Virus record (IMG/VR): IMGVR_UViG_646311923_000012
Strand: one strand, 5' to 3'
Length of the DNA: 64,000 nt
DNA from: a virus
Lineage: Duplodnaviria > Heunggongvirae > Uroviricota > Caudoviricetes
The position numbers were made by a program. This document shows positions 1 through 3,000 of this stretch, piece by piece. Within the stretch, counting starts at the first letter, position 1, and every line of letters starts with the position of its first letter.

Positions 1-3000
1 AAATTAAAATACATTGTATAGGGAGTACTCTGAGGGCCAACAGTAACAGAATTTAGCACTACAGGATTGTGAAACCCTGGCCATAGATGGAAAGATAATG
101 CTATGGCTGATAAAACTATGCCAACTTCATATATAGATTTAGCCCAGGCGTTATATTTCCAGTTGAACTTCAAAATAATAAAAAAAACGATTGTAGCAAC
201 AAAAAATAACACCGACCAATCAATAATATCATTAAGCACAGCCAGGACAACAGACACCGTCAACAATGAAAAAGCCACTACCTTATGCCAACTGAGAGTT
301 GACAGTGACAGTACTAACACAATCCACATAAGCACTCCTTTTATTTAATGATGAAGATTGATTATCAATATTTTCAATTCACCAGGCAACATTTTATCTA
401 CCTTCCACAATACATGACCATCAAAAAATAAACATGTTAATTATAAACACAGAAAACATAACCCTCATCACTATATATCCCTACCGCATATCCATATCTA
501 ACCGGACATTCAGAGCCATAAGCATTCCTTCAATAATACCTTCCGCTTTATAAAGCCTTTTACCAATAAGCCCATCAGAACATCTATGCTTACGTGCAAG
601 AGCCATAAATGTCATTCCACCTACGTAATAATCCACCAACAAATCGTGCAAATACTGATTATTCTTGTTTAATCGTGCCATACAACCACAAATTATCATG
701 GCGTCATCATCAGAACACTGAGGACGTGATTTCACTTTAGTCGGGATTAATCCTTTAAAACCAGCAGCTATCGAGGGCCATGTTACATCTTCATGATTAT
801 TTGCTGCCCATGCCCCCCATCGCTCAAGAACCATCTGGATATCACGCGCCATCGTTACCACCTCTGATTTCGTAAATCTTCACGCCCAGCCGTCCACCTG
901 GCACAGGCTGACCGCGCACAATATTGATTTCATCAAACTGCTCGTCATCAATGAGCACTTCCGCATGCGTCAGCGCATCCAGCGGTGCTTTCAGAATGTT
1001 GTCCAGGTCACGGCGGCGCTTATCCGGTGGTTCTGCAATAATTTTTATTGCCAGCCGTCCGGACAGGCTTAATTTCAGCCGCTGCTGGCGAACAATAAGC
1101 GCCACAGCCCGGCGATAACGCTCACCGGCTTTTGATACAAAATATGTGCTGCCACGACGTCGCCAGTAGGTGTTCACCGTCGGCGGGTAAGGCAAAACAA
1201 ACTCTATACGCATCAGTAACCTCTTTTACCCGAGCACGCCGGTTGCAAAAGCGTGATCAAGAAAACGAAAAATTAAATCAACCTGGGAACCATGCTTTTC
1301 TTCGAACGCCAGCGGATCCGCATGAAGCTCGTTGTGATGCTCCCGACACAGCGGTAGCGTGAAAATATCGTGGGATTTTGTTCCCATTCCACCCTGACCA
1401 TGACCAATCAGATGATGAGGATCGTCCGCTGGCTTACCACAACACGCACACGGCTGTGTCTTTACCCAGCGTGTGTATTTCTCATTTACCCAGCGGCGAC
1501 GTTTAGGTCGTTTCATGAAGGATTCCGGAGACTCCGGATCAACGGCAATGCTGACCACCGTCTTTTCCTGTGGTGGGTTCTGTTGCTGGTGGGTGTGAGG
1601 CGGTAGCGCAATATTTTTTGTGCGCTGCTTCAGTATGCTGGTGGCGGTCTGTTCTCCCGGTATGATGTCGCTTTCACGGTATACGGAGCGGATTTTTTCC
1701 GCCGGTAATCCCAGAGAACGACGCGATACTGCCTCAGGTAATGCGTCCACCACCTGATTGCAGACTGCCCACCAGGATAATTCAGCCAGCGATAATTCCC
1801 GTTCCTGTATGCCATTCATTGCGTGGCGGATGACGTCAATCATCCATGCTGACAGGTTTTGTTGAGCAAGTTGCTCAAGTGATTCGGATGTCTGGTCGCG
1901 CAGCTGGTTGTCGCAGTGCCAGCACAACACCATCGCGCCGGTACCGTAACGATGTATGACAGTTTCGCTGTGATGATAATCACCATGAGGCCACTGGCAG
2001 GATTTAACGTGACGTAATAACCAGTCAGACAGTGCACCAGCGCCACCAGCAGCACGAATCACACGCTCATTGCTGAAAAATGGCAGTAATGATTTATCTT
2101 CCGCCAGCGGCTGGCGAACGGCAGGAACGACCCCGGACGGCAGATTACGCATGCTTTTCGGTTCAGACTCCACCAGCACCCTGCCGCCATGAAATACCCG
2201 CATGGATTCACGGCCTGGCTTAACGATAACCAGACCGAGTTCCGGTACCAGAACAGGTCGAAGTAATACCCGCACATTACCTCCAGATCCGTTGCTGGAA
2301 TGTGCGGGACGGACGCGGTGGCCGTTCGGAGTAAGGGAGCCTGACGGAGATTATCCAGTGACGGTAGTCGAGGCTAAGGGCTTTTTTAACCTCGCATCCG
2401 CGCCTGCGGTAACACTGAATGAGCCATTCGGCCTGTTCTTCAGTGCATGGGGGATGCTGGTACCAGTCAGATTTGAATGCGTGAAAACACCGTCCGCGCC
2501 TGCTGGCAAAGACGGCAGAATCATCAGAATTGTATAATTTGGTATCGTGCGCCATCGGTTGTCTCTGCTGGCGCAGCAGGTGCCAGTTGTTCAGGCTGGC
2601 GTGCGAATTGTAAACCAGAATGCCAGGAAAAAACAAAACCCGCCGAAGCGGGTTAAGTGCGGGTGCGTTGAGGATGCCTGACACATCAGAGGTGGCGAGG
2701 GATTTCTCCCCCGCCAGTCTCTTACTCCTCAGGTTCGTAAGCTGTGAAGACAGCGACCTCCGTCTGGCCGGTTCGGATTCGTACCTCGCAGAGGTCTTTC
2801 CTCGTTACCAGTGCCGTCACTATGACGGTTAAACAGATGACGATCAGGGCGATTAACATCGCCTTTTGCTGCTTCATAGCCTGCTTCTCCTTGCCTTTCG
2901 GCACGTAAGAGGCTAACCTAGATTTGCCGTTCATAGATTGAGCCTCAGATTAATGTTAAGCGTCTTGCAGGACGCGTAATGTTAACTGGGGCTTTTCTCT

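Follow-up and report, generated by a model that had tools for sequence, protein, structure and literature searches.

Which genes are exchanged, and at which places, when related prophages carry different toxin-antitoxin (TA) modules? The question is raised by a stretch of 64,000 nucleotides (nt) of Caudoviricetes DNA (IMG/VR record IMGVR_UViG_646311923_000012), here called the window, in which two lambdoid prophages lie in tandem and in the same orientation. A preliminary description of the window had recognised the two prophages and listed four TA modules in them, namely hok (2722-2877), a 'RelE/ParE-family pair' (9656-10134), ParDE (54885-55447) and HigBA (63009-63673). These were said to occupy slots of the nin and immunity regions, equivalent in position between the prophages but different in content, and the slots were proposed to be exchange hotspots.

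Four intact cassettes in two tandem prophages

The four modules are all present, intact and assigned to families (Table 1). Their eight reading frames are full length and free of frameshifts, and the same TA genes are annotated by the Prokaryotic Genome Annotation Pipeline (PGAP) in near-identical RefSeq records. As had been described, the modules are found in the nin and immunity regions: each prophage has one nin cassette and one cassette beside its repressor gene. We consider it very probable that both prophages are Sp4/CP-933M-like lambdoid elements, each carrying two self-contained TA cassettes as accessory genes ('morons') at two conserved cargo positions. Gene identity, anatomy, breakpoints, linkage and cargo diversity are reported below as they were observed. 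For prophage 1, the annotation of NZ_CP027388 was used, which matches prophage 1 only; for prophage 2, those of NZ_CP074928 and NZ_AP027176.

Table 1. Window coordinates of the prophages, their shared segments and the elements of the four cassettes
Feature	Position	Strand	Basis or remark
Prophage 1	1 to ~16300		ends with the integrase
Prophage 2	early region ~52500-64000		begins beyond prophage 1 with late genes
Integrase	15272-16291 (L003, 24374-25393)		beside yccA in other strains
Shared segment, 90% identity	867-2605 / 53070-54799		blastn, prophage 1 / prophage 2
Shared segment, 80% identity	4641-4726 / 59074-59159		blastn, prophage 1 / prophage 2
Shared segment, 73% identity	8623-8968 / 61941-62293		blastn, prophage 1 / prophage 2
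Shared segment, 87% identity	10215-10400 / 63755-63937		blastn, prophage 1 / prophage 2
Small conserved open reading frame (ORF), 92 aa	2277-2555	minus	right-hand nin-slot anchor of prophage 1; no family; upstream of DUF968-RusA-Q
Small conserved ORF, 90 aa	54477-54749	minus	right-hand nin-slot anchor of prophage 2
hok toxin gene, 51 aa	2722-2877	minus	HOK_GEF (PF01848) E=1.2e-23; NCBIfam agrees
Full-length hok mRNA	2628-3046	minus	5' tac, Sok target, mok and hok frames, 3' fbi; ends at terminator
mok-like frame, 70 aa	2722-2934	minus	in-frame N-terminal extension of hok; aligns with annotated 70-aa mokW of 933W
Predicted Sok antisense RNA	2926-2996	plus	position transferred by alignment from annotated sokW of 933W
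Candidate sok promoter	TTGCCT 2891-2896, 17-nt spacer, TAACCT 2914-2919	plus	read by eye
Candidate hok promoter, TTGGCG-18-TAGAAT	3053-3082	minus	consensus scan
Intrinsic terminator closing nin slot	2637-2654	minus	scan; part of the flank, not of the hok cassette
ydaT / ydaS, prophage 1	8437-8862 / 8846-9118		labelled 'toxin YdaT family' by PGAP, Pfam
OR-like candidate operator palindrome, ACAATAAAAAACTGT-N9-ACAGTTTTTTATTGT	9152-9190		between ydaS (cro) and paaR
PaaR-type helix-turn-helix (HTH) repressor, CI analogue	9227-9628	plus	first operon gene; HTH_3 E=2.3e-12; Phage_CI_repr E=7.4e-5
PaaA antitoxin, 63 aa	9656-9847	plus	PF21217 PaaA2 E=5.6e-19; PDB 3zbe E=1.4e-20
ParE toxin of prophage 1, 95 aa	9847-10134	plus	ParE_toxin (PF05016) E=2.9e-17; ParE2 5cw7_B E=3e-36, residues 1-93
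Operon terminator	10153-10168	plus	
OL-like candidate operator palindrome	10186-10224		after parE; overlaps PL-like promoter
PL-like promoter, prophage 1, TTGACA-18-TAGATT	10200-10229	plus	
Candidate parDE promoter, TTGTCG-16-TATCAT, upstream TG	54822-54849	plus	consensus scan
ParD antitoxin, 85 aa, ribbon-helix-helix	54885-55142	plus	ParD_antitoxin (PF03693) E=1.6e-7
ParE toxin of prophage 2, 99 aa	55148-55447	plus	ParE_toxin (PF05016) E=4.5e-10, 40.4 bits vs cutoff 23
ydaT / ydaS, prophage 2	61749-62186 (minus) / 62183-62443		labelled 'toxin YdaT family' by PGAP, Pfam
OR-like candidate operator repeats, motif TTACAAATTTAA	62475-62515		prophage 2
PaaR-like HTH repressor of prophage 2, 130 aa	62570-62962	plus	HTH_3 E=6.6e-9; adjoins divergent ydaS/ydaT
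HigA-type XRE-HTH antitoxin, 119 aa	63009-63368	minus	HTH_3 (PF01381) E=4.3e-6; E. coli HigA 5ycl_A E=2.9e-9
HigB-type toxin, 100 aa	63371-63673	minus	HigB_toxin (PF09907) E=4.8e-33; E. coli HigB 5ycl_B E=3e-7
Candidate higBA promoter, TTGCAT-17-TACTAT	63680-63708	minus	read from sequence, just upstream of higB ATG
OL-like candidate operator repeats	63717-63767		prophage 2
PL-like promoter, prophage 2, TTGACC-17-TAAATT	63742-63770	plus	

Equivalent slots

The early regions of the two prophages were compared by blastn, which gave four shared segments (Table 1). Homology breaks within ~100 nt of each cassette. The nin slot corresponds to 2606-4640 in prophage 1 and to 54800-59073 in prophage 2; hok/sok and ParDE are the first cargo there, each starting within ~85 nt of the shared breakpoint (2605 / 54799). 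The immunity slot would be the interval between the CI-like repressor gene and PL/OL, where lambda has rexAB. PaaA-ParE and HigBA each occupy the space from the CI-like repressor gene to the onset of the conserved segment at 10215 / 63755, and both pairs are enclosed by candidate OR and OL sites. These breakpoints bear out the proposed equivalence of position and difference of content.

Cargo exchange at the nin slot

To examine the cargo of this slot in other genomes, contigs encoding exact alleles of the small ORF were collected, and the neighbouring genes were read. The prophage-1 allele was accompanied by hok in 10 of 10 contexts, with outer genes and Q type varying, and the prophage-2 allele by ParDE, again in 10 of 10. 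Three further alleles are listed here with their identity to that of prophage 1. P0031 (79% identical) was found with ParDE in all nine contexts; P0020 (82%) with Fic in four, and in one with a PF05015 HigB-like toxin and an HTH protein; P0070 (74%) with hok in one context and with RosmerTA in nine (RmrT 5e-92, RmrA 4e-201). For K-12 Qin, rem, hokD and relBE are located at the nin junction. Identical flank alleles are thus found with differing cargo, Fic or the HigB-like pair for P0020, hok or RosmerTA for P0070, and the junction holds at least six kinds of cargo: hok/sok, ParDE, a second HigBA type, Fic, RosmerTA, and relBE-hokD.

Alignment of the junctions showed that the flank common to all cargo begins ~50 nt upstream of the small-ORF ATG, and the junction itself could be mapped to ~50-95 nt upstream of the small ORF. 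For cargo that reads in the direction of the small ORF (hok, Fic, RosmerTA), the terminator AACCCGCTTCGGCGGGTTTTG is common as well, and it is therefore considered to be part of the slot; in other genomes the hairpin of 2637-2654 follows Fic and RosmerTA too, and phage 933W lacks it downstream of hokW. Divergent cargo (ParDE, the HigB-like pair) has its own promoter region in place of the terminator.

The anchor was found at 6195 places in 3201 of 5426 complete E. coli genomes. With up to seven copies per genome, there is ample homology for recombination. A place covering at least 80% of a query that spanned anchor and hok was present in at least 2647 genomes, compared to 381 places, in 368 of the 5426 genomes, for ParDE; hok therefore looks like the commonest nin-slot cargo, these counts not being per site. 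HigBA was present in 147 and PaaA-ParE in 588 of the same 5426 genomes, and most copies of ParDE, HigBA and PaaA-ParE in other complete genomes were at least 99% identical. Overall, the observations support the nin slot as a real cargo hotspot. Recombination in the conserved nin flank may be what swaps the cassettes. No paper describing this nin junction was found in a limited literature search.

The unit exchanged at the immunity slot

The proposal of exchange hotspots, which stands for the nin slot, holds for the immunity slot only if the whole cassette is considered, and not for the TA pair alone. The prophage-1 repressor allele was found with PaaA-ParE in 10 of 10 contexts, and the prophage-2 allele with HigB and the higA stretch in 10 of 10, including one (locus L044) in which no higA was called; neither repressor allele was found with any cassette other than its own. 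HigBA was retained with more distant homologues of the prophage-2 repressor, at 89% identity in E. coli (6/6) and at 74% in Salmonella (all three contexts with enough DNA). The replication genes on one side and the PL operon on the other side vary.

One may ask whether the TA pairs of this slot are nevertheless swapped independently of the repressor. The two prophages have homologous repressors (31% identity over 123 aa, E=1e-21) accompanied by unrelated cassettes in opposite orientations, and the same right flank may be accompanied by PaaA-ParE, by HigBA or by no cassette: in all 10 contexts sampled, the exact prophage-1 DUF1391 protein is encoded behind other repressors (DicA-like, S24-peptidase type, others) with no gene between, as is also the case in K-12 Qin. 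A Sodalis homologue, 71% identical to the prophage-2 repressor, has no HigBA, but its contigs are too short to say much. Independent swapping is nonetheless unlikely, given the exclusive pairing of allele and cassette, its persistence down to 74% identity, and the position of each cassette inside the repressor's own pair of candidate OR and OL operators. Linkage and enclosure by operators suggest that any acquisition is old and that the unit now moves whole. As each repressor allele keeps its own, operator-enclosed cassette, it is the whole immunity cassette, with or without a passenger, that is exchanged, and the proposal of an exchange hotspot is only partly supported for this slot. The region from cI to N is known as a hotspot of mosaic diversity, which houses rexAB and bstA (PMC8585504).

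The low identity of the two repressors (31%) makes it probable that the prophages are heteroimmune.

The hok/mok/sok locus

The hok entry is a complete type I hok/mok/sok locus (~2628-3082), wider than the 2722-2877 first assigned to it. The matching gene of NZ_CP027388 is annotated hokD by PGAP, and the Hok peptide is 100% identical to K-12 HokD and ~92% (47/51) identical to HokW. The predicted transcript, of ~420 nt, is bounded by a promoter-like site (3082-3053) and the terminator (2654-2637) found by scanning. In both the minimum-energy and the centroid folds, nt 1-12 of the mRNA pair with GCAUCCUCAACGCACCC (fbi), just ahead of the terminator; this 5'-3' fold-back between tac and fbi is the defining trait of hok mRNAs. 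The fold (dG -175.9, z = -7.25) was equalled by none of 100 shuffled sequences.

The Rfam 'sok' model RF01794 was matched over its whole length (107 bits, gathering score 59) at 3046-2872. This match was not retained as an antisense gene: because it runs along the hok sense strand up to the ATG of hok, it marks the leader and the Sok target, not Sok. The predicted Sok, on the opposite strand, folds (dG -31.5) into a long hairpin flanked by a single-stranded 5' tail and a U-rich tail. Nothing was flagged at the candidate sok promoter by a generic promoter scan. For the candidate hok promoter, the -10 region is conserved with 933W, and the -35 is not. The possibility that hok is a leaderless remnant like that of K-12 was also rejected, homology with K-12 stopping 14 nt before the ATG whereas the window has a full leader of 155 nt.

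The cassette (~3068-2651, ~418 bp) shows 93.6% nucleotide identity to hokW/mokW/sokW of phage 933W, and exact matches to both primers YO-349 and YO-350 of the hokW-sokW study are present in the window. Since 933W carries the cassette elsewhere in its genome, the 418-bp hok unit appears to be itself mobile. Differences between 933W and the window cluster in the first mok codons, which correspond to the 5' single-stranded tail of Sok (2919-2934), the remaining leader being almost identical. Such substitutions could keep the Sok RNAs of co-resident prophages from cross-reacting.

In the proposed mechanism, a stable hok mRNA would be kept closed by pairing of its 5' and 3' ends, while the short-lived Sok would block translation of mok, to which that of hok would be coupled. 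Hok, a membrane-damaging peptide, would then be made only once the renewal of Sok stops. The hok gene has the orientation of early rightward transcription, and post-induction read-through, sense to hok and antisense to sok, could explain a loss of Sok. By analogy with hokW, hok may also assist lysis on induction: for hokW-sokW of Sp5, HokW is toxic, SokW neutralises it, and a deletion mutant releases half the phage (Takada et al. 2021, PMC8621323).

Further observations concern the gene and its surroundings. An AT-rich island (~3200-4600; GC 29-40%, compared to ~53% in the flanks) adjoins hok. It contains, on the opposite strand, a separate accessory gene for a 257-aa alpha/beta hydrolase (3482-4255), for which no Pfam, NCBIfam or PADLOC match was found; the corresponding place in other hok-bearing prophages is taken by DUF551, QueH or an acetyltransferase. 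Finally, the hok Tyr47 codon (2734-2745, minus) stands in the context GCUUACGAA, and UACG is the recognition motif of the tRNA deaminase TadA. In the hokD mRNA, RNA editing recodes Tyr to Cys at the Tyr47 position (Hok review, bioRxiv 10.1101/2025.08.07.668861).

The paaR-paaA-parE operon

The 'RelE/ParE-family pair' does include a ParE toxin, but it is not just a pair: judged by sequence, it is PaaA-ParE, the second and third genes of a three-gene operon that starts at 9227 and encodes a three-component type II system. The antitoxin PaaA, called 'RelB-family' by NCBIfam, is without a DNA-binding domain. The first gene encodes a repressor whose best solved relative is the 434 repressor, and in which no peptidase domain was found by a Pfam search. 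The paaA gene begins 27 nt past the paaR stop, and the start codon of parE overlaps the paaA stop. A promoter and terminator scan found neither element on the plus strand between paaR and paaA, the only terminator being that downstream of parE. We infer that the three genes are co-transcribed.

Homologues of ydaS and ydaT diverge from paaR. In the candidate operator between ydaS and paaR, the two 15-nt arms are 100% complementary, and the 39-nt copy located after parE is 79% identical. An extended -10 (TGTAAAAT, 9213-9220) ends 7 nt ahead of the paaR ATG. This placement, like the leaderless paaR2 mRNA of CP-933P (PMC8630535), fits a paaR mRNA that would be leaderless as well.

In CP-933P, the roles of CI, Cro and CII are taken by PaaR2, YdaS and YdaT, respectively, and the locus is an addictive one with a bistable operon (Jurenas et al. 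2021, PMC8630535). Regulation of the PL/OL region by PaaR2 and YdaS was shown experimentally, paaR2-paaA2-parE2 stabilises an unstable plasmid, and CP-933M carries a homologue of it (PMC8630535). In the window, paaR-paaA-parE would likewise be controlled by PaaR, YdaS (the Cro analogue) and YdaT (the CII analogue), so that the PaaA-ParE cassette would be expressed together with the lysogenic state. An O157:H7 genome has a prophage at yccA, which is the Sp4/CP-933M position; its PaaR, PaaA and ParE proteins are the same as those of the window, and its paaA-parE stretch is identical. This match fits the assignment of the operon, by its sequence, as the CP-933M/Sp4 copy of the paaR2-paaA2-parE2 type.

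The 'toxin YdaT' label carried by the ydaT genes of both prophages raised the question of a fifth and a sixth TA module. These were rejected, since published work identifies YdaS as an analogue of Cro and YdaT as one of CII, and the two do not form a toxin-antitoxin pair (PMC8630535; PMC9986795). Beyond the cassette, the PL-side operon of prophage 1 contains the small RNA DicF (11806-11857, plus; 77 bits, full model) and dicB (~12040-12230), both cell-division inhibitors. If PaaR represses the PL-like promoter as in CP-933P, DicF and dicB would be additional toxic genes under repressor control.

The parDE and higBA pairs

ParDE of prophage 2 is, by its sequence, a standard two-gene type II pair pointing away from the small ORF. 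ParD matches TIGR02606 (E=1.5e-14, 53.8 bits vs a cutoff of 46.2) and, weakly, solved ParD structures (E ~4e-4); no solved relative of its ParE was found by sequence search. A gap of 5 nt separates the two genes. The candidate parDE promoter and a promoter-like site directed towards the small ORF (54831-54802, minus) are placed back to back, and no inverted or operator repeat was found near the former.

HigBA, also of type II, has a toxin-first order (higB 63673 to 63371, then higA 63368 to 63009) and converges on the repressor gene, 46 nt separating the higA stop (63009) from the repressor stop (62962). The spacer of the candidate higBA promoter contains a perfect palindrome, GTCCCATTTTGGGAC (63686-63700), which is likely the HigA operator. 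The OR-like repeats pair with the copies on the OL side, in families D1, D3 and I2, the last being 94% complementary.

In one relative, locus L044 (GCA_021461615.1, ~2940-3300), higB is called with a shift of 1 nt, and no higA is called before the repressor; this locus may have a disrupted antitoxin beside an intact toxin.

Possible roles of the cassettes

The expression, toxicity and biological role of the four cassettes are what we infer here from the features described above and from their relatives. Loss of the prophage or of its immunity region, also by recombination, would kill the cell. By analogy with paaR2-paaA2-parE2, paaR-paaA-parE would make the immunity region addictive. Recombination between the direct repeats 867-2605 and 53070-54799 could delete ~52 kb, including hok and paaR-paaA-parE, and killing of such recombinants is a plausible role. 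A second possibility is abortive-infection defence against other phages. In a more general form, PaaR-type repressors, having no self-cleaving peptidase domain, would as a rule carry a TA module before OL and thereby an addictive immunity cassette, HigBA being a second example, and the four cassettes would kill repeat-recombinants or cells in which the immunity region has been replaced. We regard this extended form as doubtful.

Several points weigh against the cassettes being self-contained, functional modules at true cargo positions. Chromosomal hokA, hokB and hokC are without post-segregational killing, according to earlier work cited by the Hok review (bioRxiv 10.1101/2025.08.07.668861). 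In CP-933P, no ParE2 activity was seen in single cells even with the operon on (PMC8630535). In PD-lambda-2, the toxic partner is the HigA-like and not the HigB-like protein (PMC9519451); for the HigBA of the window, HigB is assumed to be the toxic partner. As for the genomic evidence, the context surveys comprise 5-10 distinct contexts per allele, from an E. coli-dominated collection with exact proteins as anchors, which favours close relatives. Promoter-like and terminator-like sites were no more frequent than in shuffled sequence, and the promoter assignments rest on position and homology.

Could the cassettes then be mainly anti-phage abortive-infection systems, and not addiction or stabilisation modules? 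HigB matches the PADLOC profile PD-Lambda-2_A (PDLC03979) over its full length (E=1.1e-40) and HigA matches PD-Lambda-2_B (E=1.7e-42), and PD-lambda-2 is a validated defence against lambda-vir (PMC9519451). The HigA match, however, is confined to positions 1-119 of a 402-position profile. PD-lambda-2 combines a HigB-like protein with a fusion of HTH and peptidase, which is the toxic partner, and requires a third component for defence (Vassallo et al. 2022, PMC9519451), whereas in the window HigA has no peptidase domain and there is no third gene. The 46 nt between the higA and repressor stops leave no room for component C, and HigBA was accordingly rejected as a complete PD-lambda-2. RosmerTA, a validated defence (PMC10440598), occupies the same nin slot in other genomes, prophage hotspots are known reservoirs of defence systems (PMC9519451), and the slot adjacent to cI houses the abortive-infection systems RexAB and BstA (PMC8585504). 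Neither Hok nor either ParE toxin gave a PADLOC match, however, and the data on relatives point elsewhere, to plasmid stabilisation for paaR2-paaA2-parE2 and to release of its own phage for hokW-sokW. Addiction and defence roles are, moreover, compatible with each other. A mainly defensive function is thus rather unlikely, though it is a serious alternative given the PD-lambda-2 and RosmerTA links.

The cassettes might also be selfish or decaying passengers without present function, the slots being merely tolerant of insertions, as the nin and post-cI regions are dispensable. The nin region does hold unrelated cargo such as the alpha/beta hydrolase island, K-12 Qin hokD has lost its leader, single cells showed no ParE2 activity (PMC8630535), and the immunity slot was empty in all ten DUF1391-anchored contexts. 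We consider this improbable. The eight reading frames and the hok regulatory elements are intact, and the copies present in other complete genomes mostly share at least 99% identity. The linkage of HigBA to the repressor extends from E. coli to Salmonella, with repressors down to 74% identity, which argues for selection and not decay. Nor are the nin cargos random genes: five of the six types are TA modules by family, and the sixth (Fic) is toxin-like.

Layout of the window and neighbouring genes

The host is a Shiga-toxin-type or attaching-effacing E. coli, and window positions 1-12000 are essentially identical to several O103, O45 and O157 chromosomes. In NZ_CP027388 (PGAP), the gene order of prophage 1 is Q, RusA, DUF968, small ORF, hokD, alpha/beta hydrolase, DUF977, DUF1627, DnaC-like ATPase, O-like gene, ECs1072-family gene, YdaT, Cro-like regulator, HTH repressor, 'RelB', 'RelE/ParE', DUF1391, ydfB, dicB, exonuclease and integrase. 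Beyond the integrase, that strain continues with the chromosomal gene yccA, where the window has prophage 2 instead. The early region of prophage 2 is 99.8% identical to that of a prophage located at yccA in NZ_CP074928, in which the order is DUF1133 (Q-like), RusA, DUF968, small ORF, ParD, ParE, many small genes, DUF977, DUF1627, P, DUF1376, YdaT, Cro-like regulator, HTH repressor, HTH and HigB. The same integrase protein (WP_001299351.1) is annotated beside yccA for the prophage-1-like element of NZ_CP027388 and the prophage-2-like element of NZ_CP074928, in separate strains. The tandem arrangement can be explained by this use of one integrase next to yccA by both types of prophage.

Prophage 2 also carries an IS66-split tail-fibre gene, genes for tail, head and lysis, and three tRNAs. 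At its left end is espK, which encodes a type III secretion effector, 17103-18464 and 19226-21841 being the region of espK and the IS66 element. With its tail-fibre gene interrupted by an element of the IS66 family (ISCro1-like), prophage 2 can probably no longer form particles. A match to the Rfam small RNA STnc100 (105 bits, 50009-50181, minus) and the three tRNA genes (50954-51202, minus; Ile, Arg and Arg in the annotation of relatives) lie between an HTH/AraC-like gene, beside the Q-like gene, and a SASA esterase that precedes the lysis genes.

Two other accessory genes may be mentioned. In prophage 1, an ECs1072-family gene (7775-8230, plus) opposes the direction of the replication genes; it has an in-frame TAA at codon 26 (window 7850), where NZ_CP027388 has GAA, and an ATG directly after it, at 7853. 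No PADLOC match was found for its protein or for the hypothetical proteins 10708-11097 and 55652-55996. In the nin region of prophage 2, an HNH endonuclease (55993-56358, minus) gave weak PADLOC matches to Septu PtuB (best E=3.2e-8). Because no PtuA-like partner was seen, it is probably a homing-type enzyme and not a defence gene.

Comparison with known systems

All four modules belong to known families and are annotated in RefSeq, two of them have experimentally characterised close relatives, and both slot types are known cargo positions. The preliminary description had missed this prior knowledge of the slots, as well as the dependence on PaaR and the full mok/sok apparatus. The additions made here are modest, namely the precise nin junction and the pairing of a PaaR-type repressor with HigBA; the overall importance is small, the finding being real but ordinary. 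Three annotations should be corrected: 'RelB/RelE' to PaaA/ParE with PaaR, 'Toxin YdaT', which is not a toxin, and 'HokD', which is a full hok/mok/sok locus unlike that of K-12. With ~6200 places in complete E. coli genomes, the nin junction could be mined for new cargo, as the P2/P4 hotspots were. The linkage of TA modules to PaaR-type repressors supports the published proposal that they stabilise the immunity region, for which the tandem pair is a natural test case.

The window hok locus resembles hokW-mokW-sokW of 933W and Sakai Sp5 in its 70-aa in-frame mok, its Sok hairpin and its tac and fbi ends. It differs in location, the 933W cassette lying beside Ea22-like and Ant genes near the genome end and that of the window in the nin region. 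In K-12 Qin, hokD (relF) likewise lies in this slot, upstream of DUF968 (ydfU), and the gene order is Q, ydfU, rem, hokD, relE, relB; hokD retains only 14 nt upstream of the ATG, whereas leader, mok and sok have been lost to relBE.

Like paaR2-paaA2-parE2 of CP-933P / Sp12 (Jurenas et al. 2021, PMC8630535; Hallez et al. 2010), the window operon combines an HTH regulator with a ParE and with a PaaA that has no DNA-binding domain. Both have ydaS (Cro-like) and ydaT (CII-like) in divergent orientation, candidate operators not only at OR but also at the PL-like promoter that follows parE, and a -10 element at the position expected for a leaderless regulator mRNA. The two are paralogues, however: ParE is clearly diverged though alignable over its full length, the C-terminal tail of PaaA diverges, and the window operon has operator sequences of its own.

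ParDE follows the plan of plasmid RK2, Caulobacter and Vibrio, with a ribbon-helix-helix ParD first, then ParE, and a candidate promoter of its own, but with low sequence similarity to these. HigBA shares with K-12 HigBA (YgjN/YgjM; PDB 5ifg, 5ycl) the toxin-first order, the PF09907 HigB and the XRE-HTH antitoxin, and is only distant from it (E ~1e-7 to 1e-9). Component A and the N-terminal part of component B of PD-lambda-2 resemble the window HigB and HigA; the peptidase domain of B and component C are missing from the window.

Among lambdoid cargo positions, rexAB of lambda and bstA of BTP1 after cI, the dispensable nin region and the P2/P4 defence hotspots resemble those of the window in that conserved genes border a cargo that has its own promoter. 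The lysogenic promoter can be shared by cargo located after cI, and similar phages differ in their cargo (PMC8585504; PMC9519451). The window differs from the rexAB, bstA and P2/P4 cases in that the cargo consists of TA modules, and in that the nin junction is mapped precisely.

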